NCBI GenBank assembly: GCA_002839825.1
Contig: PGYU01000007.1
Span: forward strand, 27,165-91,164
Length of the DNA stretch: 64,000 nt
Reading direction: 5' to 3'
DNA from: Ignavibacteriae bacterium HGW-Ignavibacteriae-1
Lineage (GTDB): Bacteria > Bacteroidota > Ignavibacteria > Kapaibacteriales > UBA2268
Below the pieces are notes generated by a model that ran no database searches, had not been told where the DNA came from, and saw only the letters and a program-made list of their open reading frames with translations. The position numbers and the translations under genes were made by a program. Of this stretch, positions 2,329 to 55,412 are shown one piece after another; positions within the stretch are counted from its first letter, which is position 1, and each line of letters begins with the position of its first letter.

Positions 2329-2403
2329 TTATCCTTAGATTTAATATTCAATTTATTCTTTATTTTTATTTCGGGACATAATTGCTTGTGTTTTTGGTGG
2401 CGA

Positions 2404-3558: not shown

Positions 3559-3653
3559 ACTAACGTCCCAAAATATAGTAACAAACTTTTAATTTATATT
3601 TGCAAATATCAACTATGTAAAGTATAACATTTCAATCAAATAAAAAAGTGATT

Positions 3654-4352
3654 TTAATCAAGCAGAAAATCTGTAATGTGTGTGATAATAATCTTCGGGC
3701 GAATCCTATCAATCGGATGAATGACATTGGGCAAAACAGCCAATGAGGCGTTTTTAAGTCTGCGATAAACTGCAATGCTTTCTTCGAGACTTACCATCAC
3801 ATCTTTGTCGCCTACCATGATTTGAACCGAGCATTCAATATCTCCGTAATCTTCAATTCTGAGAGCCGGATTGTCTCCAAGTTCAAGCATCATTTTCGCT
3901 GTGGCGTTGACAACATTTTCCCAATTATGTTCGCCAAATTTATCTATCAAAGTTTGGACAAATGCAGGGATTTTGTTTTTCATTTTTTGAGGTTTTAACA
4001 TTGACGCTTCCAAAGCAGAGCTATCGGGATTCCAATCGAACTTTGTGCCAAGAGTCATGATTTTGCCAATTCGTCCGGGACTGTTTCGCTCGTGGTGCAA
4101 AGCGACGTATCCGCCCATGCTGTACCCGAAAACGGCTATTTCATTGTATGTAATTCCAGCAAGGTTATTAGTAATATAGTTTCCCAGTTCGCCTGAATAT
4201 TGCTCTATAGTAAATGGAAGAACGGGTTGAGTACCGTCGTGACCGGGAAAGTCAAATCTATGTATATGGAACTGCTTTTCAAGCTCGGAAGCAAGAGTGT
4301 CGAATTGCTTATGATTGCCCAAAGCACCGTGTAAAAGTATTAAATTTTTCAT
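3654..4352 (-). CDS. Alpha/beta-fold hydrolase (esterase/lipase-like).
   Basis: 232 aa. Contains HG near the N-terminus and the GYSMGG nucleophile elbow (GxSxG). Confidence 0.75.
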   Translation of the reverse strand: MKNLILLHGALGNHKQFDTLASELEKQFHIHRFDFPGHDGTQPVLPFTIEQYSGELGNYITNNLAGITYNEIAVFGYSMGGYVALHHERNSPGRIGKIMTLGTKFDWNPDSSALEASMLKPQKMKNKIPAFVQTLIDKFGEHNWENVVNATAKMMLELGDNPALRIEDYGDIECSVQIMVGDKDVMVSLEESIAVYRRLKNASLAVLPNVIHPIDRIRPKIIITHITDFLLD

Positions 4353-13710: not shown

Positions 13711-15105
13711 CTATCGTTTTCGGCTTAAACTTATCGGCATAAGCCCTGAGCTATAACTGAGCATTTGCCAAATATAGGCAAAGGCATCCGTCATGTCGTC
13801 ATGGGTTGAATTTGGGAATGCAGTCAATTCATGCTCGAAATCGCTCAACCATGCCGCATTGGATTTGAAGAATACTTTGCCCGATTCGACAAGTGCCGAC
13901 ATCGGTATTGCTCGGCTGAATTTGTCCTTGTCGGGTCTCAATTCCTTTACGGGCAAGCCCATTTCGCGGGCATTTTGAATCAATGCCGTTTGATATTGCA
14001 CAGACTCAATCCCAATCAAAGTCAGATTATGTGATTGATATATATTTTTGATTAAATCAATATGCTTATTGGGTGCTATTCGCTCTGCAATCACATCAAC
14101 AATAAAAATGTCTCGCTCGGGCGAAACGGCAAATATGATTACAGCCGTAAAATCCGAGCGTTCGTTTGTGCTAATTGCTAAATCTAATGTTGCATATTTA
14201 GTGCAATTTGTCTTGATGACCCTTTCCAAAGTATTATTTTTGATGAAGAAATTCGCGTCATCGGTGAAGTAATTGAATTTTGTGCGCTTGAAAATTCCGT
14301 CGCCCATCGGAGTTGGGTTTTGCATATAAAGCGACGAGAACCAATAAGCTCCGATTGATTCTTTGATTTTCAGCAATTGTTCTTTCGAGAATCGCTCTTC
14401 CCACAGTGCATCACCAATTTCCCTGCCAATAGCATCCTTTTCTTGAGCTATCGCCGGTAACGAAATCAATTTCCATTCATCAGGATTATTCATCAGCAAT
14501 CGTCCTGTCAAATCGTCCTCGTGCCACCTTGTCATCACAAGTATGATGCAGCCCGCGGGTTCAATCCTTGTGAAAACCGTAGAGCGAAACCAATCCCAGA
14601 GCAAATCTCGTTGGTGTTTGCTGTTGGCTTCGGCATCATTTTTAATCGGGTCGTCAATTATTAGCAAATCGGCTCCGCGTCCTGTGAGTGCACCGCCTGC
14701 ACCAACGCAAATCATTCCACCGTGAGAGTCTTTCAATCTGAAAATATTTGCCGCAAACGATGATTTATCGGTTGATATGCCAAATCTTTCGCCATAATTA
14801 TCAACCAAATCTCTCACTTTTCTGCCCCAACTTGTAGCGAATTGAGATTCATAGGTGGTGAGTATTACCGTTTTATCGGGATGATTGACCAAAAACCAAA
14901 AGGGCAAATATTTGGAGATTAACTCCGATTTGCCATGTCTCGGCGGCATATTCACAATCATTTTGCCATTTCCTGCGGCAATCATCTTTGCTAATTCGGC
15001 ATTCAAGAATTGAATATGCTTCGGCAAATCGAAATTGGGCTCGAGATTGTATGCCAACCATGCCGGACTAAGTTTGGGGTCGAATATTTTTGTGTAATCT
15101 ATCAT
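13711..15105 (-). CDS. Phage terminase large-subunit (TerL)-like ATPase/nuclease, standing alone.
   Basis: Walker A: MPPRHGKS. Walker B: LLIIDDP. Coupling motif: TRWHEDDL. The C-terminus has an RNaseH-like nuclease region. The track start at 15144 is TTG, and the first ATG (MIDYTKIF) is at 15105. Confidence 0.7.
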   Translation of the reverse strand: MIDYTKIFDPKLSPAWLAYNLEPNFDLPKHIQFLNAELAKMIAAGNGKMIVNMPPRHGKSELISKYLPFWFLVNHPDKTVILTTYESQFATSWGRKVRDLVDNYGERFGISTDKSSFAANIFRLKDSHGGMICVGAGGALTGRGADLLIIDDPIKNDAEANSKHQRDLLWDWFRSTVFTRIEPAGCIILVMTRWHEDDLTGRLLMNNPDEWKLISLPAIAQEKDAIGREIGDALWEERFSKEQLLKIKESIGAYWFSSLYMQNPTPMGDGIFKRTKFNYFTDDANFFIKNNTLERVIKTNCTKYATLDLAISTNERSDFTAVIIFAVSPERDIFIVDVIAERIAPNKHIDLIKNIYQSHNLTLIGIESVQYQTALIQNAREMGLPVKELRPDKDKFSRAIPMSALVESGKVFFKSNAAWLSDFEHELTAFPNSTHDDMTDAFAYIWQMLSYSSGLMPISLSRKR

Positions 15106-15293
15106 TAAAAGCACAAAAATCCGACGATAACAGCCCAAATACAAATCATTGATTTTAAATTCATTGCTAATAATTGTACTTCTCGATTCAGAATAATTTA
15201 GAATTTTGCCGTAAATTACGTATTTTTAAATTTGAATATTTCATTACTTGAATTTTATATATTCGTTATTGAATTTGAATTTATGAGCTTATA

Positions 15294-29568: not shown

Positions 29569-32500
29569 ATGAAACAATGTACTTTCCTTGCAGCAATACT
29601 TTTTTGTATTACGAGCTCTTTATATTCTCAAATTCCCCAAACCATTAGCTGGCAGGGAATTTTGCAGGATGCTGATTCAAAAAATCTTTCAGGCACCTTT
29701 AGCCTGACTGTCAAGTTATACGATGTCGCTTCAGGCGGCACCGCTATTTGGAACGAAACACACAGCAGCGTAGTTATCGCTGACGGACTTGTCAATCTTA
29801 CTCTTGGAAGCGTTACACCTTTTAGTATTAATTTCGGCGATGAATACTGGCTCGAAATCACCGTAGGAACCGGCACTCCGCTTCCAAGGATTAAACTCAG
29901 TTCTGTGCCGTATGCAATGCATTCAAAGACGGCTGAATCTGCAAATGAAACTGACCCGACATGGAGTGGAAATGCCAATACAACGGGTACTATAAGTAGA
30001 AGCGGTAAAGTTGGTATTGGAACATCATCCCCAACGGCTTTACTGCATATTTTTGATTCAGAAACTACTGCGGGAGATGTTCTATTTGTGGGGAATATTG
30101 ATTGGACAACGCCTAGGAATCCTCCCACTTCCGGTGCAGGTACACGCATGATGTGGTATCCGGATAAAGCGGCAATTAGAGCAGGCTATATTTCGGGAAA
30201 TCACTGGGATATGAGCAATATTGGGATGTCATCAGTTGCTATGGGTTACAACACTATTGCAAGCGATCACGGAGCCACGGCTTTTGGTTCAGGAACTGAA
30301 GCTTCTGGATATGGTTCTACTGCTTTTGGAATTTTGACTACAGCACCGGGGAACGTCGCAACTGCTTTCGGAAATAATACGTCTTCAACAGGAATTGCTA
30401 CCACCGCAACGGGACACAGCACTACAGCATCGGGTGATTATTCATTTAGCATGGGATATGGAACCCAAGCCTTGGGTCAATTTTCATTATCAATGGGAAA
30501 AGAAACTTCGGCTCTATCAGGCTATGAAGTAGTTTTAGGGTCATATAATACTGAATACGTGCCCGAAAATGCATTCGGTTGGAGTGAAAATGACCGCTTA
30601 TTTGTAATAGGAAACGGCGTGGGTGATTTTGCTCCAAGCAATGCAATGACCGTGTTAAAAAACGGCAAGGTGGGAATTGGAACCGACAACCCACAATATC
30701 CGCTTCACGTGAATACTCCGGGAGTATTTACCGGAATACAGATGACCACTGATGCAGCGGGTACCACCATGAGTGATGGCTTGATTATTGGCATGCAGTA
30801 CCAGTCAAATGAACCTTCCAATCGTTATGCAACAGTACTGAACAAGGAAAATTCACCATTGCTTTTAGGAACAAATAATAATTATCAGGGCGACTTGACC
30901 ATCCTACCAGGTGGGAATATTGGGATTGGCATTAATCCGCCCACTACGCGGCTCGACATCAACGGTCAAGTTCGTATTCGTGGTGGCAGTCCGGGCGCAG
31001 GAAAAGTGTTGACAAGTAGTGCTAATGGCACTGCTACTTGGCAAACTAAAAGTTTAGAATTGCCATTTTCTTCAACAATATCAAGCAGTGGAACGCTTTT
31101 CTATATTAAGAATAATGAATATTTAGGTTCAGGAATTTATGGCTACGGTGTATTTGGTGTAACCGGCGAAGCTCATGATGGCGGTATTGGAGTAGGTGGA
31201 TACGGTGGATTAGGAGTAGAAGGTGTGTCAAAATCTGCAGGAGGGGTTGGAGTTTATGGACGAGTTCAAATTTCAGGAACAGCAATCAAGGGTAAGGTAG
31301 ATAATCCCAATGATTTTTCAGGATACTTTTTGGGTGGAAAATTTTATACTTCAAGTCAGGTTGGAATAGGCACAGAAAGTCCCTCGGCTCTTCTGCATGT
31401 TCATGGAACTGGTTATAGTGGAGGTAATGTTGTTTTTACGGGCGAATATTTAGATTCGTATATTAGCCAAGCACCCGTTGAGGGCTCGGGTACGCGCATG
31501 ATGTGGTACCCAAATAAGGGTTCATTCCGAGCGGGACGTGTAACAAGCACGCAATGGAATAAAAGTAATATGGGAGATTATTCCACAGCATTTGGATACG
31601 ACACTAAGGCATCCGGATATGGCTCTATTGCTTTAGGATACTCATCTACTGCATCTAACACTGCTGCATCGGCAATCGGATTTAATACTATTGCCTCCGG
31701 TAATGTTTCCACTGCAATTGGTTATTCCGCCACAGCTTCAGGATATGCTTCCACTGCAATTGGTTATTACGCCACAGCTTCAGGGTTTGCTTCCACTGGA
31801 ATGGGGTATAACACTACCGCGAAATCAGGATATGAAACTGTAGTCGGTAGTTGGAATACGGATTACACTCCTGTTTCAACATCAGGTTGGAATTCTAGTG
31901 ATAGACTGTTTGTAATTGGAAATGGCACTGCAAGTACATCACGTAGTAACGCCATGACAGTATTAAAGAATGGGAAAATAGGCATAGGAACAGCATCACC
32001 TAGCGAACTATTGCATATAAATAATTCTACCGGAACTGCTAAATTGCGAGTTTCATCAGCGTCCACAGCCCTATCGGAGCTTACTTTTTATAGCGGGAGC
32101 ACTTATCTTGGCGCAATAGGTAGTGACAATACAAGTAATTATTTATTTATTTATCATGGTGGAAATATTATTTTCAAAAATGGCAGAATTGGTATTCAAA
32201 CTGAAACAAATCCCACATTTGCCCTACATTTACCAAATAGTACAAGTGATGGTACCGGCAGAGGACGCGCAAATGCATGGACAACTTACAGCGATAGAAG
32301 GATTAAAACAGCCACTGAAGAAATTCAATATGGACTTAGCGAAATAATGCAACTTCAACCGGTAAAATATTTCCAACATAATTCAATATTTGACGATGGT
32401 AAATTAGTAATTTCCGATATTGGGGCAAGCGATATTGGTTTTATCGCACAAGATATTTTCAAAATAATTCCTGAAATTGTCAGCGTTCCCGATAATGAAA

Positions 32501-32637
32501 ACGCTGAACTTTGGGGGTTGAATTATGAAAAGCTCACTCCAATACTTGTAAAAGCTATTCAAGAGCAACAAATGAAAATAGACGAACTCGAGCGGAAACT
32601 CGAACTACTTTTGCAAAAATTTTCTGAAAATAAATAA
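29569..32637 (+). CDS. Tail-fibre-domain surface protein with a shared N-terminal domain, Gly/Ser/Thr-rich repeats and a C-terminal S74-type intramolecular chaperone domain (cassette 2, gene A).
   Basis: The signal peptide and N-terminal domain are paralogous to 4638-6554. Repeats include YGSTAFG and GYSATASGYASTAIGY. The C-terminus DIGFIAQDIFKIIPEIVS...LNYEKLTPILVKAIQEQQMKIDELE matches the chaperone-of-endosialidase (peptidase S74) signature. Confidence 0.75.
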   Translation: MKQCTFLAAILFCITSSLYSQIPQTISWQGILQDADSKNLSGTFSLTVKLYDVASGGTAIWNETHSSVVIADGLVNLTLGSVTPFSINFGDEYWLEITVGTGTPLPRIKLSSVPYAMHSKTAESANETDPTWSGNANTTGTISRSGKVGIGTSSPTALLHIFDSETTAGDVLFVGNIDWTTPRNPPTSGAGTRMMWYPDKAAIRAGYISGNHWDMSNIGMSSVAMGYNTIASDHGATAFGSGTEASGYGSTAFGILTTAPGNVATAFGNNTSSTGIATTATGHSTTASGDYSFSMGYGTQALGQFSLSMGKETSALSGYEVVLGSYNTEYVPENAFGWSENDRLFVIGNGVGDFAPSNAMTVLKNGKVGIGTDNPQYPLHVNTPGVFTGIQMTTDAAGTTMSDGLIIGMQYQSNEPSNRYATVLNKENSPLLLGTNNNYQGDLTILPGGNIGIGINPPTTRLDINGQVRIRGGSPGAGKVLTSSANGTATWQTKSLELPFSSTISSSGTLFYIKNNEYLGSGIYGYGVFGVTGEAHDGGIGVGGYGGLGVEGVSKSAGGVGVYGRVQISGTAIKGKVDNPNDFSGYFLGGKFYTSSQVGIGTESPSALLHVHGTGYSGGNVVFTGEYLDSYISQAPVEGSGTRMMWYPNKGSFRAGRVTSTQWNKSNMGDYSTAFGYDTKASGYGSIALGYSSTASNTAASAIGFNTIASGNVSTAIGYSATASGYASTAIGYYATASGFASTGMGYNTTAKSGYETVVGSWNTDYTPVSTSGWNSSDRLFVIGNGTASTSRSNAMTVLKNGKIGIGTASPSELLHINNSTGTAKLRVSSASTALSELTFYSGSTYLGAIGSDNTSNYLFIYHGGNIIFKNGRIGIQTETNPTFALHLPNSTSDGTGRGRANAWTTYSDRRIKTATEEIQYGLSEIMQLQPVKYFQHNSIFDDGKLVISDIGASDIGFIAQDIFKIIPEIVSVPDNENAELWGLNYEKLTPILVKAIQEQQMKIDELERKLELLLQKFSENK

Positions 32638-43969: not shown

Positions 43970-46801
43970 ATGAACATAATAAGTCATTTTAAAGATAGAG
44001 GAAAAGCAGTCACCATAACTTATAGCTTGGTTTTTGCTTTAATTGCCTACTTAGCATTTACGACACTCAACTCTGCGGTACAAGTAACAATGCCCGAAGA
44101 GAACGACGAATGCATGATGTGCCATGACGACAAAGATTTGAAAGGTACGCGCAAAGGCAAGAATATTTCGATGTATGTCAATCCCAATCACGTTTTGGGT
44201 TCAGTTCACGCTGAAGTAAAATGCGTTGATTGCCATACAGATTTAGCAGGAGTGGAATTGCCTCACGAGGACGATTTGAAGCCCGCAACTTGTGGTAAAT
44301 GCCACACTAAGCAGCAAAAGGATTTCGACATGAGCTTTCATGGTGTAGCACTCAAAAAAGGCGACCCTTTGGCGCCTAATTGTCAGTACTGCCACGGTAG
44401 CCACCAAATTGTTGATGCAAAGCACGAAAAATCGCCCGTGCAACCCCTCAAAATACCATTCATGTGTGGGAAATGCCACCAAGAAGGTGCACCCGTACAA
44501 ATGTCTAGGAATATTCCCCAATCGCATATCTTGGAAAATTATTCTGAGAGTATTCATGGTGAAGGTCTTTTCAAGCGCGGTTTAGTTGTGACTGCTACTT
44601 GCGTTTCGTGTCATACTGCACATGCGATTTTGCCACATACTGATAAGAGGTCTTCGATTGCACGTAATAATATTGCCGCAACGTGCTCTCAATGTCATGC
44701 GAGAATTGAAGATGTGCACAAAAAAATCATTGATGGCGAATTATGGGAGAAAGAAGCTCATACGCTGCCTGCTTGTGTTGATTGCCACCAACCTCATAAA
44801 GTTCGGAAATCGTTTTATGATGTAGGTTTAGCAAAAGCCGAGTGTTTGAATTGTCACCAAGATAAAAATATTAAAGCAAGCAAAGGCGGTCGCTCTCTGC
44901 ATGTTGATATAAGCAAATTAGACCATTCGGTACATTCAGACCTTGCTTGCAGTAAATGCCATATTGAGGTTCGCCCATCTAAAATTCGCTCTTGCGAAAC
45001 AATTACAACAAAAGTTAATTGTGGAAGTTGCCATGACAAAGTAAACGATAATTATATGCAAAGCAGCCATGGGAAGCTATTCTTAAGTGGTGAAAGTGAT
45101 GCTCCAACTTGTGTAACATGCCACAATGACCACGAAGTGCTCCCGAAGATTAATCCAATGTCTAAAACTTTTGCTATAAATATTCCTAACCTATGCTCAG
45201 AGTGTCACCAAGACGGACATCAAGCAGCGGTCAGGATGGAAGACAAGGTACAACATCTTACAGAAACTTATTCGGAGAGTATTCACGGGCAGGGCTTGAA
45301 ATCCGGCAGACTCAAAGTAACGGCGAATTGTTCGGATTGTCACTCTGCGCATATGGAAGCAAATCATGAAAATCCCGTATCCTCGACTCATAAGGACAAT
45401 ATTAGCACCACTTGTGGCAAGTGCCATTGGGGAATTCAGACTCAATTCGATAAAAGTATCCACTCGCCAATGGTATCAAAATCGGAAGATGACTTGCCAA
45501 ATTGTAACACATGCCATGTGGCTCACTCAGTAGTTGACCCATCAAAAGATGAGTTCAGATTGTCCATGTTGAATACCTGCGGCAAATGCCATGAAAAAAT
45601 TACTCACTTATATTTCGATACATATCACGGGAAGGCGTCACTTCTTGGTTCGGGCAAAGCTGCTAAATGCCAAGATTGCCATAGCGCCCATATGATATTA
45701 CCAACATCACACGCAAATTCGACACTTTCACGAGACAACATTGTCGAAACATGTGCAAAATGCCATCCCGCAGCTAATAAAGGCTTTACAAGGTATTTAA
45801 CTCATGCAACTCATCACGACCCGGAAAAATACCCACTGCTTTTCATCACATTTTGGGGTATGACAATACTTCTTCTCGGCACATTTCTGGTTTCATGGTT
45901 GCACACATTATTGTGGTTGCCAAAGTCATTAAAGATGCGAAAAGAGATGATGGTACTCAAAGCCGCTGGGCATTCTGGCAAACGCGTTAGGAGATTTACA
46001 CCATTGAACCGAATTTTGCACGTCACAATGATATTATGCTTCCTGACTCTTGCCGCCACAGGGATGATGCTCAAATTCTCATATGCTTGGTGGGCACAAT
46101 TCAGCGTTAAGTTGATTGGCGGAGTGGAAGTTACAGGCTTCTTCCATCGCTTTGCTGCAATAGTATTGTTCGGTGTATTCTTTACTCATATTTTCGATTT
46201 AATATTCAACAAACGTAAAGAATTTAGTTCATGGAAAGAAATGCTTTTGGGTTCGGATTCTCTTTTGCCAAATAAAAAAGATTGGGAAGATTTTATCGGC
46301 TCAATGAAATGGTTCTTCAACAAAGGACCGCGCCCGCAATACGGAAGATGGACTTATTGGGAAAAATTCGACTATTTTGCAGTATTTTGGGGGATTTTCG
46401 TAATTGGCTCAACCGGGCTTATGCTCTGGATACCCGAGTTTTTCACCAAATTTATGTCCGGACAATTCATTAACGTTGCTACTATTATTCATAGTGACGA
46501 GGCATTGCTTGCAGCAGGATTCATTTTCACCATACATTTCTTCAATACGCACTTCCGTCCGGAAAAATTCCCTATGGATACCGTAATTTTCTCAGGAAGT
46601 TATGATGTAGAAGAATTCAAATTCGACAGACCCGCCGAATATGAAAAATTGGTCGAAGAAGGGAAATTGGAAGAACTTTACGTTGACGCACCGACTCCGA
46701 CACAAAAGAAAGTTCATTCAATCTTTGGATGGGCAGCTTTATTAACCGGATTATTAATAGTCTTTTTAATAATTTATTCGATTATTAGCATTAACTTTTA
46801 A
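43970..46801 (+). CDS. Membrane-anchored 19-heme c-type cytochrome fused to a C-terminal FdnI/HydC-like diheme cytochrome b domain (CbcL-like).
   Basis: I count 19 CxxCH motifs between residues 48 and 600. The C-terminal 330 aa hold 4-5 TM helices with [25 protein letters not shown] and [18 protein letters not shown], matching the Ni/Fe-hydrogenase/formate-dehydrogenase b-type cytochrome family. Confidence 0.8.
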
Positions 46802-46812
46802 ATGTAAGTATA

Positions 46813-46945
46813 TCAATTCATCCGATGACTCCAAGTCATCGGATGAATATTGTAGATTAAAATATTGTAGGGACAGCAACAGCGTTCTGTCCAAAATATC
46901 GTCATACTTAGCTGCATGCGAAGAATCAAGTTTTCAAAAAAACAT
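46813..46945. repeat. ~130-bp intergenic repeat element, copy A (copy B at 55284-55412). It opens with a 14-bp-stem hairpin.
   Basis: Copy A reads caATTCATCCGATGACTccaAGTCATCGGATGAATAt...GGACAGCAACAGCGTTCTGTCC...GAAGAATCAAGTTTTCA, and copy B is nearly identical. Confidence 0.65.
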
Positions 46946-47378
46946 TCCGTCAGGTCTACAACTGACGGACTGAAATGAAGAACATGTTTACCGTCAGTTA
47001 TAACAACTGACGGGACAATAAAACGAATGATATTGTATAAATTGTTGCAGTGAATAAGGTAGGTGACGTTTGGGTGATAAAACTTGGAGAGACTTCTGTT
47101 TTGCAGTTCTCAAATGTTCATCATATAGTGTTTTCCATATCTCAAGCACTTTTTAACTAATTTTAAGGACGTTATTAGTATTTACCCATAAATCAGAAAA
47201 TAGTATCAAAGAAATTATTAATTTTTAGAAATATAGTACAAACTAAAAATAAATGTTGAAATTTAATTCAATTTGTTTATCTTTGTTTGTTGACTTTTTG
47301 GATGTTTATATATAGTTATATATATATGTTGTTTTTTAGATATAAATAATCTTACAATAATATTCTGATAAGGTAAAT

Positions 47379-48545
47379 ATGAAAGACAAGAAGCATATAG
47401 TAATAGTATTCTCAATAGTTTTTGGGAGTATAATTATAGCGTTGATTGCTGACAGATTATTGCAACCTACAAGTTTCGGCAAATACGGACATTACCGTTG
47501 GGATGCCGTTAATGAGCTTCAGACTCAGAAAATCATAAATCAAAATACTAATACATGTAGTGAATGTCATAATGATATATATCAGTTGCATCAGAAGGAC
47601 GCTCATTTTAGTGTGCCTTGTGTTGACTGCCACGGTGCGGGAGATTTGCACGTTTCATTCTATAGAAAAGATGAAAACTCGAAGAATATCACCAAATTAC
47701 AAGCTGTACTGAAAAAAGAATTTGATTTCGAAGGTTGTCTTTATTGCCACCGGAAATTAAATGCTCGACCTTCTGACTTCCCTCAGATAAATCAGGAAGA
47801 GCATTACAAATTTATGCACGTAATTGATTCAACTACAAAATGTATTGCCTGCCATGATCCTCACGAGCCTATATTTCTATTGACTGAATCAAGACAGGCT
47901 CGTCTGCATCCAATAGTTTACAAATGTACTGATTGCCACAGTAAAAGACCCGAAAAGAATTATTATGATGTTGCCGACCATCCTAAGATATTCGAATGTA
48001 AAGATTGTCATTCCGAAATTGTCAAGGATTTCAACACTAAATCTCACAGTAACGCAGTTGAATGTCGAACATGCCATTTATTTCATAAAGAAGATGAGAC
48101 AATTGGACGAATGTATAAAAACGGAAACATGGAATTCTGTTTGCTTTGTCATGAAAAGAAACCCTTCAAAGATGCAGACTTTCCTCCTAAAGTTGAGTGG
48201 CCTTCCCACATTGGCAGTCTAAAACATATAGAAAAGACAGATACGAAATTATGTCTTGACTGTCACGCAAAGGATATTCATAAAATGGATTTAAGATTGA
48301 GGGGGAATCCGCATCCCGGAAATTGGAAAGCCGAACATAAGAAATATGCAAAGAGAACTTTTGCTTCTAATGACAAATCTGATTGTAAAAATTGTCATAC
48401 AAAGGATTATTGTATGTCCTGTCATTTGACAGAAATGCCACACCCGGTTGATTTTATGGATAATCACAAATTCACTGTTGAGAAAAAAGGGAAAAAAATG
48501 TGTGCAAACTGCCATAATACTGATTTCTGCGGTCAATGTCATTAA
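47379..48545 (+). CDS. Membrane-anchored 13-heme c-type cytochrome.
   Basis: An N-terminal TM helix precedes 13 CxxCH motifs, the last being CGQCH at the C-terminus. Confidence 0.8.
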   Translation: MKDKKHIVIVFSIVFGSIIIALIADRLLQPTSFGKYGHYRWDAVNELQTQKIINQNTNTCSECHNDIYQLHQKDAHFSVPCVDCHGAGDLHVSFYRKDENSKNITKLQAVLKKEFDFEGCLYCHRKLNARPSDFPQINQEEHYKFMHVIDSTTKCIACHDPHEPIFLLTESRQARLHPIVYKCTDCHSKRPEKNYYDVADHPKIFECKDCHSEIVKDFNTKSHSNAVECRTCHLFHKEDETIGRMYKNGNMEFCLLCHEKKPFKDADFPPKVEWPSHIGSLKHIEKTDTKLCLDCHAKDIHKMDLRLRGNPHPGNWKAEHKKYAKRTFASNDKSDCKNCHTKDYCMSCHLTEMPHPVDFMDNHKFTVEKKGKKMCANCHNTDFCGQCH

Positions 48546-48620
48546 ACGTATTTGAAATAAAATGTTTACGTATTATCAAGAGAAACAAATTGATTAAACA
48601 GTAAAATAAGGACATTTAAA

Positions 48621-49376
48621 ATGGATAATATAGAAAGAAGGCAATTCATAAAATGCGGTTTGTACAGTACAGCCGGAATACTTGTCGGGTCATTTTTTGC
48701 TTTCAGTAAAAGCAGCGACCCTATTGAAGTTCTAAAATATGAGGATTTGCTAAAGTTCGACTGGGGCTATATAGTTGATACTACAAGATGTATCGGCTGC
48801 GGTGCGTGCGTAAGAGCTTGTTCGGTAGAAAATAATGTACCTGATACATTTTTCAGAACGTGGGTTGAAAGATTTGAAATTAATAAGGATGAGCAGGTAA
48901 GGGTTGATTCACCGAACGGAGCAATGGAAGGTTTCAAAAATGACAATTTTGATACCGATATTGTTAAAGCATTCTTTGTACCAAAAATCTGTAACCACTG
49001 TCAAAATTCAGCCTGTACACAGGTTTGTCCTGTCGGAGCATCATACCATTCACCGGATGGTGTTGTACTGATAGACAAAGAACATTGCATTGGGTGCGGA
49101 TACTGCGTTCAGGCTTGCCCGTATAGCTGTAGATATATAGACCATAAAGTCGGTGTTGCGGATAAATGTACATTATGTTATCATAGGATTCACAAAGGCG
49201 AACTACCGGCTTGTGTAAATGCCTGTCCCCGTAATGCTCGGATTTTCGGCAATCTGAAAGACCCCGAAAGTAATATTCGTAAAATTCTACACAAAAGAAG
49301 ATATGGTATACTTAAACCTGAATTAGGAACTAATCCTAAATGCTTTTACATCGGACTTGATATGGAGGTTAAATAA
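48621..49376 (+). CDS. Tat-exported 4x[4Fe-4S] ferredoxin subunit (NrfC/PsrB/HybA family).
   Basis: Tat motif RRQFIK. Four Cys clusters: CIGCGACVRAC, CNHCQNSACTQVCP, CIGCGYCVQACP and CTLC...CVNACP. Confidence 0.85.
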   Translation: MDNIERRQFIKCGLYSTAGILVGSFFAFSKSSDPIEVLKYEDLLKFDWGYIVDTTRCIGCGACVRACSVENNVPDTFFRTWVERFEINKDEQVRVDSPNGAMEGFKNDNFDTDIVKAFFVPKICNHCQNSACTQVCPVGASYHSPDGVVLIDKEHCIGCGYCVQACPYSCRYIDHKVGVADKCTLCYHRIHKGELPACVNACPRNARIFGNLKDPESNIRKILHKRRYGILKPELGTNPKCFYIGLDMEVK

Positions 49377-50524
49377 TGGAAACGGCACAAAATTTCCTTT
49401 TCCCCAATGAAATGCATATTTACTGGACAGTTATGATTGTCTTATATCCATATATCACAGGTATGGTTGCAGGTGCTTTTATAGTATCGTCATTTTATCA
49501 TGTTTTTGGTATGGAAAAACTCAAGCCAATCGCAAAATATGCACTTGTTTCATCACTTGCATTTTTACTTTTCGCGACAGTACCGCTCCTTAATCATCTC
49601 GGCAGACCCGAAAGAGCATTTAATATTATGCTGACGCCGAATTTTAATTCTGCTATGAGCGGTTTTGGCTTTGTTTATGCATTTTATATGTTAATTGTTG
49701 TATTGGAAATCTGGTTCAGTTACAGAAAGGAATTTATAGAAAAGTATAAGCAGTCAAAGGGATTTGTAAAGTTCATTTATAAGGTCCTTATTCTCGGCAA
49801 TACAAATGATAATCTTAATACAAGAAGATATGACAATAAAATGGTTGTTGTCTTGGGTGCAATCGGAATACCGGTGGCGTGTATTCTGCACGGATATGTT
49901 GGTTTTCTATTCGGTTCTTTAAAGGCAAATCTATGGTGGTCAACTCCTCTGATGTTTATTATTTTCATATTTTCGGCAATTGTTTCCGGCTTGGCGGTTC
50001 TGACATTTCTATATTTGTTTGTACATTGGAAAAGAAAACTTAAAATCAATCAGGAAGCTATTGATTTAATGTCAAAATGGCTTTGGGGGTTTATGATAAT
50101 AGCAGTTACACTCGAACTAATGGAGGTTTTGTCTATTGCTTATGAACAAACAGAAAAATGGGAAATCCTACATCAACTAATATACGGCAAACTTAAGGTC
50201 TCGTATTTATATCTACAGATTGGACTGTTTTCCATTGTGCCGTTTTTAATTCTTACAATTACATCATTAGTGAAATTTGATAACAGAATAAGAAATTTTT
50301 TGATTTGGCTCTCATCCGGCATGTTGTTAATTCAGGTTTTGCTGATGCGCTGGAATGTAGTTATCGGAGGACAGTTAGTATCCAAAAGTATGAGAGGATT
50401 TACAGAATATTTTCCGGGCTTATTAGATAAAGAGGGTTTATTAGTTTCATTTTTACTGATATTTATTCCATTTTTATTATTAAGAGCTTTTGATAAATTT
50501 TTCCCGTTTTTCGAGAAACAATAG
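49376..50524 (+). CDS. NrfD/PsrC-family integral membrane quinol-interacting subunit.
   Basis: 382 aa with ~9-10 TM helices and an NrfD-like N-terminus (HIYWTVMIVLYPYITGMVAGAFIV). The start overlaps the upstream stop (ATAATGG). Confidence 0.8.
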   Translation: METAQNFLFPNEMHIYWTVMIVLYPYITGMVAGAFIVSSFYHVFGMEKLKPIAKYALVSSLAFLLFATVPLLNHLGRPERAFNIMLTPNFNSAMSGFGFVYAFYMLIVVLEIWFSYRKEFIEKYKQSKGFVKFIYKVLILGNTNDNLNTRRYDNKMVVVLGAIGIPVACILHGYVGFLFGSLKANLWWSTPLMFIIFIFSAIVSGLAVLTFLYLFVHWKRKLKINQEAIDLMSKWLWGFMIIAVTLELMEVLSIAYEQTEKWEILHQLIYGKLKVSYLYLQIGLFSIVPFLILTITSLVKFDNRIRNFLIWLSSGMLLIQVLLMRWNVVIGGQLVSKSMRGFTEYFPGLLDKEGLLVSFLLIFIPFLLLRAFDKFFPFFEKQ

Positions 50525-50858
50525 GTTGATACAACAAATTAAATTAAGTCAATCAAATAAAATATTTCACTTTGCATAATTTTATTCTTACATTTTATAA
50601 AATATTAATAGATGTTGAACTACACATTATTATAAGGCATATTCAGCATCAAAAATAAAATATTCGAATATCAGTTCTAATTCTCAGGATAAGTAAGCGT
50701 TGCACCGCTTATCAGATATATTTGATAGTCGTAACAAATTATAATTTAACAATTCATTCTATAGCTTTAAGTCATCGGTCCTTTCAGTTGTTACAAAGAC
50801 AGGACGAAACAAAAGAGCATGCTTTACGGGCTTGTAGCAACAGAACGGACATAAATTC

Positions 50859-51434
50859 TTAGGGGAGCCGATTAACATTGTAGTTGAGCAAGACAATCCC
50901 ACAATCGAATGATTTGGCTTGAATAAGTTTTAGATTGTGAATTGCTCCGAGCTTGTCGAAAATCTGCATACCGCTCCCAATTGCTGCCGGGTTGACGAAA
51001 ATATGATAATCGTCTATCAGATTATGCTTTATTAAATTCGATACGAATTCTGCTCCTCCATAAGCGATTATGTCTTTTCCGGGAATATTTTTCAAAGCAT
51101 TAATTTCACTTACTAAATCATTTTTAGCTAAAATAGTATTGTCCCACTCAGAATTTTTTAAAGTATTTGAAAAAACTACTTTCGGTGTTTCGGTAAATTT
51201 AATTCCTGCAGCATTTTCAGGATTGTCGGGGTCAGATGCTACACCAGCCCAATATGGGATAAAACCGGTTGCGAGCTTTCTGCCAAGCACGATGCAATCT
51301 ATACTATCTGTAAGCTCCTGAACGTAGGACATAAGTTCCTTGTCCCAATTCCAAGTAACCCAATCCATTTCGCCATTTGGACCAGCAATAAAACCATCTA
51401 TAGTCATCTGTACTTGCAATTTCAATTTACGCAT
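50859..51434 (-). CDS. Dihydrofolate-reductase-like (RibD C-terminal domain) family protein.
   Basis: N-terminus: KLQVQMTIDGFIAGPNGEMDW. Also IAYGGAEFVSNLIKHNLIDDYHIFVNP. Confidence 0.75.
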   Translation of the reverse strand: MRKLKLQVQMTIDGFIAGPNGEMDWVTWNWDKELMSYVQELTDSIDCIVLGRKLATGFIPYWAGVASDPDNPENAAGIKFTETPKVVFSNTLKNSEWDNTILAKNDLVSEINALKNIPGKDIIAYGGAEFVSNLIKHNLIDDYHIFVNPAAIGSGMQIFDKLGAIHNLKLIQAKSFDCGIVLLNYNVNRLP

Positions 51435-51680
51435 AATCTTTCCTTAATCTTTATAGTTCACAAAAAATTACTACTTTAGTCGAAAATGATATGTGAATAT
51501 TGGAAGAATTCCCTCAAAATGACTGACCTGTCCATCGTATTTATCTTTTAAATCCAATTCGGATATTCATCTCATCACACCGATTCTATTTGGTCAATTG
51601 AGATATTTTTTGTAATTTTAATATTGTATTTATGTCATGTTGGAAATTGATAATTGCTTACAAATTAAGAGTGCAAATAT

Positions 51681-53111
51681 ATGAAAATACTATACTTTGT
51701 TGTTACATTTATGTTGATAATCGCCAATTATGGGACTTTAAGTTCGATAGAAAACGATGATTGCATGATGTGTCATTCTGATCCCGATATGTATATGGAA
51801 AAGGGGCGTTCAAAAATTTCTCTATGGGTGGATAATTCAAAGTTTATGTTTTCTGCCCATAAAAATGTGAAATGTATAGACTGCCACAAGGGATTCGACC
51901 CCGATGATATCCCGCATAAAGAAAATATTGGGAAAATTGATTGCAACTCATGTCATCAAGGAGTCGAAAAAAAGCATACCTTCCACCCATGGATGGCAGA
52001 TGCTCCTTTGCAAAACGATTGCAAAAAATGTCATGGCTATCATTATGCAACTCCGGCTAAGGGCAAAGGCAGCAAGGTCTCCGGCATTCATTCTCTTCAA
52101 CAATGCGGCACTTGCCATCAAGATGTGGTTGACGAATATATGAAATCGGAGCATTACAAAGCATTATTGAGCATCTCGGACGAAAATGCCCCCGATTGCA
52201 ATTATTGCCATAGTAAACCCATCACTAAGGGCTGGATTGGAAATTATATTGAGCGAAAAGCAAACCAAAACCAAGTTTGTACAGATTGCCATAGTCACGA
52301 CACCAAAAATCCCTCGGTCATCAAAACGATAACAAATTCTAATTCGAGGCATTTCCAACTGAAAGCTGAAGGTAAAGAGCACGCTGCAGTATGTACGGAT
52401 TGCCACGGATTTCATAATATTAAGAAAAATGAGGATTTTGAAGCTCGTCTCAGTGTCAAAAATTCATTCTCTGCGTGTGGCAAATGCCACGTTCATATCG
52501 CCCAAGAATATCAAAACAGTATCCACGGGTTGGCTCAAATCAAAGGCAATATGGATGCTGCATCGTGCGTCAGTTGCCATTTCGAACATGATTTGAAAAA
52601 GGTTCCACACGTAGATGAAGCCATTTTCAAAAGTAATAAATTAAACAAACAATTTGCCATAGACAGCAAAATGATTTATTGCGTTTCTTGCCATGGCGAT
52701 TCGGAATTAATGGGCAAAAGCAATATCAAATCATTGTTGGAATCACATTCGTGGTTGCCGGAACTCGAAAGCCATTTTTCCGCAGTATCTTGTTTCGATT
52801 GTCATTCGAGTTATACGGTACCGTATTTATCGCATAATATATTACCTTTGGAAAAAAGTGTCAAAACTTGCAATCCATGCCACGAGCAGGACATGAATTT
52901 GAAATCTAAATTGGCAAATTATTACAAGACACGAAAAACCGGAGAATCCGGAATAATTGACGGCACAATAGGCGGTGGCAGTTACGTTGGCTTGTCTCGG
53001 AGTGTAATTCTTGATAATCTAAGTTTTATACTTCTGGGAGGCGTATTTATTGGTTTACTCGCTCATGGTTATATTAGATGGTACTTCAGAAGCAAAAAGG
53101 AATCAAAATGA
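51681..53111 (+). CDS. 13-heme c-type cytochrome with N- and C-terminal membrane anchors.
   Basis: I count 13 CxxCH motifs. The N-terminus CMMCHSD resembles the 43970 protein's CMMCHDD. A C-terminal hydrophobic helix is present. Confidence 0.8.
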   Translation: MKILYFVVTFMLIIANYGTLSSIENDDCMMCHSDPDMYMEKGRSKISLWVDNSKFMFSAHKNVKCIDCHKGFDPDDIPHKENIGKIDCNSCHQGVEKKHTFHPWMADAPLQNDCKKCHGYHYATPAKGKGSKVSGIHSLQQCGTCHQDVVDEYMKSEHYKALLSISDENAPDCNYCHSKPITKGWIGNYIERKANQNQVCTDCHSHDTKNPSVIKTITNSNSRHFQLKAEGKEHAAVCTDCHGFHNIKKNEDFEARLSVKNSFSACGKCHVHIAQEYQNSIHGLAQIKGNMDAASCVSCHFEHDLKKVPHVDEAIFKSNKLNKQFAIDSKMIYCVSCHGDSELMGKSNIKSLLESHSWLPELESHFSAVSCFDCHSSYTVPYLSHNILPLEKSVKTCNPCHEQDMNLKSKLANYYKTRKTGESGIIDGTIGGGSYVGLSRSVILDNLSFILLGGVFIGLLAHGYIRWYFRSKKESK

Positions 53112-55270
53112 AAAAGTTAGAACTATACCCGATTTGGATTAGAATTTGGCATATTTTGCAAGGTATTTTATTTCTTCTTCTTTTGATTTCCGGTGTTGGT
53201 ATGCATTTTGGGATTGTACCGATTGGCTTTTCATTGCCAATCCATATTTATTCCGGTATCACGATGTCGGTACTATATATACTATTTTTCGTAATGAATT
53301 TCGCAACCGGGAATGCAAAACATTATTTCAAAATTCAAAAAGGGACAGTAAAGAAATTTTTTGTAGAATTAAAATATTATTTTTGGGATATATTTATTCA
53401 GCAAGAATTGGCATACGACCCGGAAATCATTAAATTCGGTGTTTTCAAGCAATTATTATATTTGAAAATAATGTATATAGTTATTCCATGTATTATTATT
53501 ACAGGATTAATTATTTTGATACCAAATCTGATGCCTGAAACGATTTTTGGTAGCTCAGGTGTTTGGGTTATTACGCTGATTCACACGATAATGGGATTCT
53601 TCCTGACTGCGTTTTTCCTTTTGCACTTATATTTGGGTACAACAGGCAAGACAGTTGGTCAATTATATAAAGCAATTGCAAGCGGTAGTCTGGAATACGA
53701 AGAAAAAATACCGGAACAAGAATTACCATCGGATTTAGTAAAGAAAAAGAAATTCTTCCCGACATCATTTTATAATCCGCTTACAATGCTCGGCTCATTA
53801 TTAGCATTAATGGCATTTGTAGTGATTATCGGACTATTATTTGTTGACATAATTGCAGGATTTGACAATCCCTATATCGGCATTGTTACATTCATTTTCT
53901 TACCTATAATTCTTGGTCTCGGTATAGTATTGATATTTCTCGGGGCTTTATGGGAAAGCAAAAAACGTTTTCTTGCCCAAAAGAAAGATAAACCATTGCC
54001 AATAATAGATTTAAATAGTCCCAAAACCCAAAGAATAATAGCATTTATGTCAATTATTGGTGTGATTTTGTTATTATTCACAGTATTCGGCTCGTTTAAA
54101 GCTTACGAATATACGGAATCTGATGAGTTTTGCGGCGAGGCATGTCATCAGGTTATGCACCCTGAATATTTGGCATATCAAGATTCTCCGCATTCAAATG
54201 TGGGATGCGTCAAATGCCACATCGGTTCAGGTGCAGATTGGTTTGTCAAAGCCAAGTTGTCCGGTAGTTGGCAGCTGATTTCGGTTATGTTTGATTTGTA
54301 TTCAAAACCGATTCAAGTGCCTGTTGCTCATCTACGTCCTGCCCAAGAGACTTGTGAGCAGTGCCATTGGCCCGCTAATTTCAATAGCGAAAAGAAAATA
54401 GTCTATGATTTTTTCCAATCGGACGAAGTCAATTCCGAAACGATGTTGACAATGTTACTCAAAACCGGTGGTGGTACACCTGAAAGCGGTAGGCAATCCG
54501 GGATTCATTGGCATATGAATCTCGCTAATGAGATTCATTATATTGCAAATGATTACGAGCGCCAAGATATTCCTTGGGTGAGAGTGGTTTCAAAATTGAC
54601 CGGCGATACGACTATTTATATCAGAGAAGACGACGAAATAACACCGGATATGCTCGAGCCCGAAAAATTACGGAAAATGGATTGTATTGATTGCCACAAC
54701 AGACCATCGCACATTTACAAGATTCCTTACAAGGAAGTAAATACATATATGTCGAATCGCAAAATTGACAATTCACTGCCATTTATCAAAAATCTCGCCG
54801 TCCAAATACTCGAATCATATTCGATTAATCGCGAAAATTCATTGGCGGAAATTAGTAATTATATAAATAATTTTTATAATAAATATTACCCTGAAACAGC
54901 GAAGGGGAAAAAGCATCAGATTCAGCAATCAATCCACCACATTAACACAATTTATTTGCGAAATTATTTCCCGGAAATGCATACAAATTGGAAACGATTC
55001 CCGAATAATTTGGGGCATATGTATTCCGATGGGTGCTTCAGATGCCACGACGGTAAACACAAATCAGCTGACGGGAAAGTGGTGAGCCACGATTGCAATG
55101 TTTGTCATACAATTATTTCACAAAAAACGCCCGGTCAAATTGAAGAAACACGCGGTTTAGACTTGGAATTCAAGCATCCCGGTGGCGAAAATCTCAACAT
55201 CGAAAACAGACTTTGTTCCGACTGTCATGGCATTAAACAAGTGAAAAACATACAGGCATTCAAAAAATAA
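53108..55270 (+). CDS. Fusion of an FdnI/HydC-like cytochrome b (N-terminal) with a periplasmic 7-heme NapC/NirT/ImcH-like c-type cytochrome (C-terminal).
   Basis: The ATG at 53108 follows AAGGAA and overlaps the upstream stop by 4 nt. N-terminal motifs: IWIRIWHILQGILFLLLLISGVGMH and ITLIHTIMGFFLTAFFLLHLYLG. Seven CxxCH motifs follow, including CVKCHIGSGADWFVKAK, which is NapC/NrfH-like. Confidence 0.75.
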   Translation: MKKLELYPIWIRIWHILQGILFLLLLISGVGMHFGIVPIGFSLPIHIYSGITMSVLYILFFVMNFATGNAKHYFKIQKGTVKKFFVELKYYFWDIFIQQELAYDPEIIKFGVFKQLLYLKIMYIVIPCIIITGLIILIPNLMPETIFGSSGVWVITLIHTIMGFFLTAFFLLHLYLGTTGKTVGQLYKAIASGSLEYEEKIPEQELPSDLVKKKKFFPTSFYNPLTMLGSLLALMAFVVIIGLLFVDIIAGFDNPYIGIVTFIFLPIILGLGIVLIFLGALWESKKRFLAQKKDKPLPIIDLNSPKTQRIIAFMSIIGVILLLFTVFGSFKAYEYTESDEFCGEACHQVMHPEYLAYQDSPHSNVGCVKCHIGSGADWFVKAKLSGSWQLISVMFDLYSKPIQVPVAHLRPAQETCEQCHWPANFNSEKKIVYDFFQSDEVNSETMLTMLLKTGGGTPESGRQSGIHWHMNLANEIHYIANDYERQDIPWVRVVSKLTGDTTIYIREDDEITPDMLEPEKLRKMDCIDCHNRPSHIYKIPYKEVNTYMSNRKIDNSLPFIKNLAVQILESYSINRENSLAEISNYINNFYNKYYPETAKGKKHQIQQSIHHINTIYLRNYFPEMHTNWKRFPNNLGHMYSDGCFRCHDGKHKSADGKVVSHDCNVCHTIISQKTPGQIEETRGLDLEFKHPGGENLNIENRLCSDCHGIKQVKNIQAFKK

Positions 55271-55283
55271 ATTCATAATTAAA

Positions 55284-55412
55284 CAATTCATCCGATGACT
55301 TTCGAGTCATCGGATGAATATAGAATGGATATTTCTTATGGACATCAACAGCGTTCTATCCAAATTTCCGTCATTTTTAGCCACCGACGAAGAATCAAGT
55401 TTTCATAAAAAT
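55284..55412. repeat. ~130-bp intergenic repeat element, copy B.
   Basis: caATTCATCCGATGACTttcgAGTCATCGGATGAATAt...GGACATCAACAGCGTTCTATCC...GAAGAATCAAGTTTTCA. Confidence 0.65.

Follow-up and report, generated by a model that had tools for sequence, protein, structure and literature searches.

Three putative menaquinone-linked modules, one containing a cytochrome b-ImcH fusion, in a multiheme cytochrome island of an Ignavibacteria bacterium

In Geobacter, the quinol-oxidizing cytochromes ImcH, CbcL and CbcBA are separate proteins, and genetic studies assign them to different extracellular acceptors: ImcH to those of high potential, CbcL to those of low potential and CbcBA to the lowest. ImcH is reported to oxidize menaquinol at a periplasmic-side site near heme 1 and to be electroneutral, because the protons are released to the periplasm. 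For CbcL and CbcBA, it has been proposed that quinol is oxidized on the cytoplasmic side and that the membrane potential assists electrons in crossing through the b hemes, an arrangement that favors low-potential acceptors. How energy conservation is matched to acceptor potential in metal- and electrode-respiring organisms is an open question, studied almost only in Geobacter. The Ignavibacteria have already been implicated in electrode and iron respiration, and cultured members reduce iron, arsenate and nitrate. The stretch analyzed here, a 64-kb portion of contig PGYU01000007.1 of Ignavibacteriae bacterium HGW-Ignavibacteriae-1 (hereafter the window), contains six intact open reading frames (ORFs), A to F, that lie on the plus strand between positions 43970 and 55270 and span 11 kb. 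They quite probably specify three independent inner-membrane complexes, A, B-C-D and E-F, that link the menaquinone pool to periplasmic heme chains, most likely by oxidizing quinol for periplasmic or extracellular acceptors. The most unusual of these proteins is F, a single polypeptide in which a cytochrome b domain precedes an ImcH.

The published signature of ImcH consists of three transmembrane helices, a CX3CH motif next to the last helix and six CX2CH motifs. Residues 224-730 of F carry this entire set and, judged by sequence, are a complete ImcH. The transmembrane segments fall at approximately residues 231-262, 263-295 and 316-344 by hydrophobicity, and helices are present in the AlphaFold2 model as well. 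Once 222 is subtracted, the spacing of the heme motifs is that of catalogued ImcH homologs. A protein of 497 amino acids (aa), encoded by bacterium BMS3Abin03 (locus L058), shares 46% identity with this module over about 495 residues and agrees with the ImcH homolog GBD86519.1 (Table S3) in length and motif positions. Like ImcH of Geobacter sulfurreducens (GSU3259), with its three helices, CX3CH after helix 3 and six CX2CH motifs, the module has a Lys and a Gln near heme 1. A constant shift of 220 residues maps E127, H137, K173, Q179 and Y188 of the Geobacter protein to E347, H357, K393, Q399 and Y408 of F. C352 and C356 are invariant. Across a set of 55 sequences, K393, Q399 and H357 are invariant, position 347 is E or D in all but one (54/55) and position 408 is Y or F with the same frequency (54/55). 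When a profile of the family was aligned with NrfH, its CX3CH region fell on heme 1 and Lys393 on the lysine of NrfH. The ImcH part would thus be an NrfH-like quinol oxidase with its quinol site at heme 1 on the periplasmic side.

Stand-alone ImcH proteins are about 470-520 aa long, whereas the ImcH of F is fused, through a Lys-rich cytoplasmic linker, to a cytochrome b domain of 205 aa. This is a variant architecture of ImcH, and homology is not excluded by it. Published ImcH surveys describe homologs with one to three helices only, and no description of a cytochrome b-ImcH fusion was found in the searchable literature. Length varies widely elsewhere in the family too (P0335 and others): representatives reach 1166 aa and have extra C-terminal heme regions, and one 645-aa protein bears an N-terminal Macro domain before its ImcH-like part, possibly an artefact of gene calling.

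In fold, the b domain of F is a four-helix dihaem cytochrome of the FdnI/HyaC type. Histidines 25, 43, 56, 169 and 183 are invariant, and a profile alignment superimposes four invariant histidines on the heme ligands of HyaC. A direct sequence search of the PDB gave no match, whereas profile and fold searches did: the AlphaFold2 model (predicted local distance difference test score, 77) gave fold matches to FdnI, HyaC and CybB. FdnI and HyaC of Escherichia coli share the four-helix fold and the four histidine positions; they differ from F in having an iron-sulfur subunit as partner, where F would have a multiheme cytochrome, and in not being covalently joined to an ImcH. Descent of the F domain in recent times from the b domain of the 13-heme CbcL-like protein that neighbors ImcH in relatives was considered and rejected, collinear similarity being weak (22% identity, E value 0.024 in a tiny database).

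The multiheme partner is presumably E, encoded immediately upstream. The ORF of F is open from position 53078, yet matches to homologs begin at residue 11, and the TGA of E shares an ATGA with the ATG at 53108. That ATG is therefore the most likely start of F and would couple its translation to that of E, as the first-pass annotation of this stretch, made from the sequence alone, had already proposed. E ends in a transmembrane helix whose histidine is invariant in all nine orthologs compared; it is followed by an Arg-aromatic motif, RWYF in eight of the nine and RII in Ancylomarina. Geobacter CbcA is reported to have just such a C-terminal helix with a conserved histidine, as do hydrogenase small subunits. 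The His-bearing helix of E and the dihaem b domain of F thus reproduce the architecture of CbcBA (GSU0593-0594), in which a multiheme cytochrome with a His-bearing C-terminal helix adjoins the gene for a four-helix dihaem b. Several differences separate the two systems. E has 13 hemes, six of them an N-terminal addition to the seven of CbcA; the gene order is c then b; and the b domain of F supplies all four canonical histidines itself and is fused to ImcH. When E is compared with the 7-heme protein of Ancylomarina sp. DW003 (locus L032), it is the last seven hemes of E that align (27% identity, residues 199-466), and its first six resemble the N-terminus of A. In the model favored here, E would be held by its His-bearing helix on the dihaem b domain of F.

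A fused gene in a metagenomic contig could be an assembly or frameshift artefact that joins two neighboring genes, and in Ancylomarina b and imcH are indeed adjacent but separate. The evidence is nevertheless strongly opposed to this explanation, which is so improbable that it can be set aside. The window is contained in a 126-kb JGI metagenome contig (3300038334, Ga0246094_000324), and an independent Logan assembly (SRR3546454), in which the arrangement from B to F is identical, encodes the same 730-aa protein without a single difference. Full-length b-ImcH proteins fill at least 75 clusters at 90% identity, from many sources in Kapaibacteria, Ignavibacteria and Chloroherpetonaceae, all under generic names; lowering the threshold to 50% leaves essentially a single cluster. 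The linker is found in every sampled fused homolog and is rich in Lys or Arg in most. The arrangement with E is also stable, as each of the seven fetched fused loci with sequence upstream has an ortholog of the 13-heme cytochrome directly before the fusion, and so do the Kapabacteria contigs L087 and L088.

The fusion of a b domain and a 7-heme part had been seen in the first pass; what was missed is its novelty as a one-polypeptide cytochrome b-ImcH. The combination of a CbcB-like b fused to ImcH with a 13-heme CbcA-like partner seems undescribed, as does the unnamed 13-heme family of B discussed below. The covalent fusion argues that the two types of quinone site cooperate physically. F would combine an electroneutral site, suited to high-potential acceptors, with a b-type site that draws on the membrane potential and serves low-potential ones, and both would share a common heme exit with E.

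A second, divergent fusion occurs in a locus designated L089 (positions 1-4297), where a 771-aa protein (P0299) with 32% identity to F lies between the large subunit of a [NiFe]-hydrogenase and the maturation protease HycI. It has Glu in place of the Gln equivalent to Q399. From its position, the membrane cytochrome b of a hydrogenase appears to be fused to ImcH. Thus, b domains that normally anchor a periplasmic redox partner are joined to ImcH in at least two genomic contexts, through one fusion event or two.

The hydrogenase context raises a different view of E-F, that of a series redox loop. A periplasmic donor would pass electrons to E and on to the b hemes, menaquinone would be reduced on the cytoplasmic side, the resulting quinol would be re-oxidized at the ImcH site on the periplasmic side, its electrons would exit via the hemes of ImcH, and charge would be moved across the membrane. 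In P0299 the b domain would be expected to act as a quinone reductase, like HyaC; the four ligands of HyaC/FdnI are also present in the b domain of F, and E has an anchor helix like the one in hydrogenase small subunits. Such a loop is unlikely, however, since the closest characterized analogs, CbcBA and ImcH, are both quinol oxidases in Geobacter, no periplasmic donor enzyme is encoded near E-F in the window or at nine related loci, and the donors and acceptors of well-separated potential that it needs have not been identified. A related idea is that E-F works as a Rieske-less 'bc' machine, in which a cytoplasmic-side quinone site and a periplasmic-side quinol site sustain a local quinone loop or a Q-cycle-like split. 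This too is doubtful. If it were true, membrane potential could be conserved or deliberately spent according to the potential of the acceptor, and the hydrogenase-linked b-ImcH of L089 would be the same device driven by H2. The reading preferred here is still that of two quinol-oxidizing sites feeding one heme chain.

The CbcL/MtrH/MtoC family, to which A belongs, was surveyed by Zhong & Shi (2018) and spans 15 phyla, with 3-23 heme motifs, 416-1034 aa and usually six helices. Like CbcL of G. sulfurreducens (GSU0274), A has an N-terminal periplasmic multiheme domain and a C-terminal six-helix HydC/FdnI-like cytochrome b. The b domain scores 45.4 bits against Pfam Ni_hydr_CYTB (cut-off, 30.1) and has an E value of 8e-12 with the FdnI model TIGR01583. 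Its six hydrophobic segments enclose His645, His684, His726/740 and His841/856, so that helices 1-3 contain histidines and helix 5 contains two, the same distribution as in Geobacter CbcL. The 19 CxxCH motifs span residues 48-595, versus nine hemes in Geobacter CbcL. This difference corresponds to an internal tandem duplication with a unit of about 243 aa, which roughly doubles a 9-heme domain: residues 40-300 and 300-620 are the two halves, 34% identical over 225 aa (E value 9e-39), and at the DNA level a 729-nucleotide (nt) direct repeat is recognizable (44534-44559 versus 45263-45288). On this sequence evidence A is a genuine member of the family. It would act as a single-polypeptide enzyme that connects a dihaem b, whose quinone site most likely faces the cytoplasm, to 19 c-type hemes.

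Homologs of CbcL with 19 hemes are not new, although the first-pass annotation had presented them as larger than known forms. Table S2 of Zhong & Shi (2018) lists Ignavibacteria proteins of 944-952 aa with 19 motifs, and the motif positions of A, compared as positions and not as aligned sequences, are within 1-3 residues of those in one of them, OGV21847.1 (944 aa, 19 motifs, six transmembrane helices). Orthologs of A with 52-62% identity were also found by tblastn in many fetched loci. The A-type proteins and the ImcH homologs of this lineage are thus already catalogued, and as a system the locus is not of a new kind.

The second module is of the cytochrome-NrfC-NrfD type. NrfBCD and Hmc/Nhc-type modules likewise combine a periplasmic multiheme cytochrome, a four-cluster ferredoxin exported by the twin-arginine translocation (Tat) pathway and an NrfD-like membrane subunit. 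Unlike NrfBCD, B-C-D has neither NrfA nor another catalytic partner, and B falls in a family without a name: its 139 homologs are all unnamed, come mostly from Ignavibacteria and the FCB group (Fibrobacterota, Chlorobiota, Bacteroidota and allies) and, in relatives, always precede C and D. The stop codon of C overlaps the start of D in TAATG. Judged by sequence, B-C-D is a cytochrome-NrfC-NrfD module of an unnamed family. D would exchange electrons with quinol and pass them through the four clusters of C to the membrane-anchored B, which would stand where a catalytic subunit is otherwise found.

Several named systems were tried as identities for this module and rejected. C scored 214 bits with the NCBIfam model for TtrB (cut-off, 416), 189.3 with DsrO (a near miss at 200) and 155.6 with NrfC (377.6); D scored 51.9 with NrfD (347.6) and 34.6 with DsrP (350), and the NrfH model reached 49.1 against a cut-off of 134.2. 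Every equivalog score for Nrf, Dsr, Hmc, Qrc, Ttr and Phs, including HmcB, QrcC and QrcD, was below its cut-off, and no partner genes are nearby. The window contains no NrfA-like ORF, and the NrfC, NrfD and NrfH scores are far too low for a canonical Nrf system. For DsrMKJOP, DsrP falls well short and no DsrMK-like genes are close. Alternative complex III (ActABCDEF) has a pentaheme ActA, a large ActB, two NrfD-like subunits (ActC and ActF) and ActD and ActE; here there is only one NrfD-like gene, C has just 251 aa and B binds 13 hemes. A canonical Nrf or alternative complex III with known partners nearby, the case that the first pass had named against its own proposal, is therefore not what is encoded.

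To place the modules in context, one genome per species was scanned with F, and all window proteins were then compared by tblastn with 80 fetched loci (designated L and a number). In metagenome-assembled genomes of Ignavibacteriota and Bacteroidota, and also in Gemmatimonadota, Terriglobales and KSB1, the usual order is a 13-heme CbcL-like gene, a 19-heme A ortholog and a stand-alone ImcH. Fifty loci have an unfused ImcH and 6 kb or more of sequence upstream; the 13-heme CbcL-like gene is present in 35 of these, and 20 have an A ortholog as well. A B-like gene with C and D accompanies ImcH at three of the 80 fetched loci. Since most related loci are clustered in this way, the side-by-side arrangement, which had been taken as a distinctive consolidation, is not special to this window. 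The modules are autonomous, each occurring alone in relatives. B-C-D stands alone in L083, and E-F lies alone amid housekeeping genes in a Kapabacteria relative with 63% identity. In L085 and L086, B-C-D is joined solely to Rieske/cytochrome b and multiheme cytochrome genes. The row in question, B-C-D followed by a Rieske protein, a bc1/b6f-type cytochrome b and an 11-heme cytochrome of about 480 aa, is observed at L085 10001-16349, L086 706-7054 and L061 8101-13976. One Bacteroidetes metagenome-assembled genome (L009, 75-4658) has a fused F homolog, its N-terminus cut by the contig end, followed by a 19-heme A ortholog (55-62% identity); it is the sole other fetched locus in which the fusion type adjoins A.

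The surroundings of E-F in two relatives bear on where its electrons go. In Ancylomarina sp. DW003, separate adjacent genes encode a 7-heme cytochrome that has a His-bearing helix, a cytochrome b of 204 aa and an ImcH of 500 aa, a trio that plausibly represents the state before fusion. They end a row (L032, 6063-12193) that begins with a 6-heme cytochrome, a 120-aa protein without assigned function, a DUF5777 beta-barrel and a monoheme cytochrome c, and which may be a complete pathway leading from inner membrane to outer membrane. Upstream of the E-F orthologs in Ca. Kapaibacterium Ch6 (L004, 5142-8432) are genes for a 5-heme cytochrome, 33% identical to the 6-heme protein of Ancylomarina, a 403-aa protein with a signal peptide, a Rieske-like protein and a monoheme cytochrome c; the 403-aa protein has no Pfam match and is possibly a beta-barrel. 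Similar ORFs with five or six hemes are present in L006, L007, L010 and L071. A small multiheme cytochrome and a barrel or barrel-like protein beside E-F in relatives thus link the E-F family to a likely outer-membrane partner. The Ancylomarina record is not labelled as metagenome-assembled and so probably belongs to a cultured strain, which could be an experimental entry point.

The same neighborhoods help to weigh the possibility that the modules serve ordinary periplasmic respiration, in which quinol electrons would go to soluble nitrite, sulfur-compound, arsenate or selenate reductases encoded elsewhere. The best-scoring models for C (TtrB, DsrO and NrfC), the resemblance of the ImcH part to NrfH, a window without an outer-membrane conduit and the position of B-C-D and E-F amid housekeeping genes in some relatives all fit this explanation. 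It is nonetheless improbable: the equivalog scores are uniformly under their cut-offs, no catalytic subunit adjoins the modules at any locus examined, cytochromes with 13-19 hemes suit long-range transfer, in relatives E-F lies beside a small multiheme cytochrome as well as a beta-barrel, and genetics connects both the ImcH and the CbcL family with extracellular acceptors.

The view that A, B-C-D and E-F are quinol-oxidizing exits would run as follows. Quinol would be oxidized at each module, and the electrons would pass through periplasmic carriers to extracellular or periplasmic acceptors of differing redox potential. The menaquinone pool would have three alternative outlets, which probably differ in the acceptor potential to which they are tuned. 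By analogy with the Geobacter systems, we infer the direction of electron flow, the acceptors and the interaction of E with F; a role in extracellular electron transfer is plausible. Some observations weigh against this view. An outer-membrane conduit, a periplasmic shuttle and a terminal reductase are all absent from the window by motif scan, Pfam analysis of the flanks and tblastn; the absence of a porin-cytochrome conduit had been noticed at first pass. The accessory proteins of the Kapaibacterium and Ancylomarina loci likewise had no tblastn match in the window. What E and the F b domain have in common with CbcA and CbcB of Geobacter is architecture only, and no CbcA or CbcB model is among the NCBIfam matches of window proteins. 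In the AlphaFold2 model of F, the placement of the two halves relative to each other is uncertain (predicted template modelling score, 0.54). Finally, members of the CbcL family also occur in Fe(II)-oxidizing bacteria, where they are thought to reduce quinone.

This last point is the starting point for a reading in which the modules run in reverse, so that the quinone pool would be reduced with electrons drawn from a cathode, a syntrophic partner or extracellular Fe(II). The CbcL/MtoC/MtrH homologs of Fe(II) oxidizers are proposed quinone reductases. ImcH homologs, however, have so far been implicated in quinol oxidation only, the cultured Ignavibacteria are reducers of iron, arsenate and nitrate, and the window provides no carbon-fixation or oxidase context. 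Reverse operation is accordingly very unlikely. The locus shows that, in the Ignavibacteria/Kapaibacteria lineage, families of the CbcL, ImcH and CbcBA-like types are enlarged to 13 and 19 hemes and often clustered, and that a single clade has the CbcB-like b covalently attached to ImcH. The fusion, in addition, supplies both quinone sites in a natural, stoichiometric complex that is open to structural and biochemical study.

The features of the island are collected in Table 1. Its c-type heme motifs total 52, the sum of 19, 13, 13 and 6 CxxCH motifs and one CxxxCH. The first-pass annotation had counted 52 hemes in six same-strand genes, which the motif count bears out; the seventh site of F is an atypical CX3CH. 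A six-frame scan of the whole window found no ORF besides A, B, E and F with two or more CxxCH motifs. The density is thus not a matter of chance, and the cluster is real and sharply bounded. Pfam searches, suggested at first pass, placed Ni_hydr_CYTB in A and F, Fer4_11 in C, NrfD in D and Cytochrom_NNT in F, which therefore matches two of these families. The module assignments hold and have become sharper: A is of the CbcL/MtrH/MtoC family, and the 7-heme part of F is a true ImcH and not merely NapC/NirT-like. The three quinol-interacting modules stand as three units, but the putative quinone-reactive units number four: D, the b domains of A and F, and the ImcH module of F.

Table 1. Features of the cytochrome island; positions are those of the 64-kb window.
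Feature	Position (nt)	Strand	Length or residues	c-type heme motifs	Description
ORF A	43970-46801	+	943 aa	19 CxxCH	CbcL/MtrH/MtoC family
A, heme domain	43970-45829	+	aa 40-620	19	Predicted periplasmic; nt range includes N-terminal signal or anchor
A, cytochrome b domain	45830-46798	+	aa 621-943		6-helix, FdnI/HydC-type
3' repeat, copy 1	46800-46942		~145 nt		Directly after A; 15-bp-stem hairpin 46816-46849 and second hairpin GGACAG...CTGTCC
ORF B	47379-48545	+	388 aa	13 CxxCH	13-heme cytochrome; N-terminal membrane anchor aa 3-29; matches Pfam multiheme families
ORF C	48621-49376	+	251 aa	0	Tat signal RRQFIK; four [4Fe-4S] Cys motifs; Fer4_11 E value 4.4e-26; NrfC/TtrB/DsrO type
ORF D	49376-50524	+	382 aa	0	NrfD-like integral membrane quinone/quinol-interacting subunit (predicted); Pfam NrfD E value 1e-36; hydrophobic segments
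3' repeat, degenerate partial copy	50736-50778				After D; families D7 and D10, 72-79% identity
RibD_C gene	50859-51434	-			Splits the island between D and E
ORF E	51681-53111	+	476 aa	13 CxxCH	Signal peptide; C-terminal transmembrane helix aa 441-465 (nt 53001-53075) with His462
ORF F	53078-55270 (likely start 53108)	+	730 aa	6 CxxCH + 1 CxxxCH	Cytochrome b-ImcH fusion
F, b domain	53108-53692	+	aa 11-205		4-helix FdnI/HyaC-type dihaem cytochrome b (predicted)
F, ImcH module	53747-55267	+	aa 224-730	CX3CH 352; CxxCH 377, 426, 536, 653, 673, 713	3 transmembrane helices (predicted)
3' repeat, copy 2	55270-55411		~145 nt		Directly after F

A repeated element after A and after F, its degenerate copy after D, a gap of 578 nt between A and B and the opposite-strand gene between D and E together indicate three transcription units, A, B-C-D and E-F. 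The layout thus points to three separate units and not to a single operon. The element comprises a hairpin with a perfect 15-bp stem, ATTCATCCGATGACT...AGTCATCGGATGAAT, and a second small hairpin. No further copy exists in the 64-kb window and none in the fetched loci of other organisms, and no Rfam family matched it. A terminator cassette, a small mobile repeat and a rearrangement scar are possible identities for it. Across the whole window, Rfam identified two tRNAs and nothing else, and a promoter and terminator scan returned 61 promoter-like sites versus 48.5 expected.

Among the flanking ORFs, Pfam recognized genes for type IX secretion system (T9SS) cargo with a Por_Secre_tail sorting domain, extracytoplasmic function (ECF) sigma factors, a CotH protein, a radical-SAM enzyme and housekeeping proteins. 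They are unrelated to electron transfer and fit a host from the FCB group. Farther from the island, a lone minus-strand ORF (13711-15144) resembles the large subunit of a phage terminase. About 15 kb from it, a plus-strand gene (29569-32637) specifies a protein of 1022 aa in which YadA-head repeats are combined with a Peptidase_S74 (endosialidase chaperone) domain, as in phage tail fibres. Both may be prophage remnants. In two similar minus-strand gene pairs (26556-27164/24953-26554 and 42181-42609/40572-42200), the gene for an ECF-type sigma factor precedes one for a protein that has about 535 aa and a C-terminal T9SS sorting domain; the second of these pairs is situated just upstream of the island.

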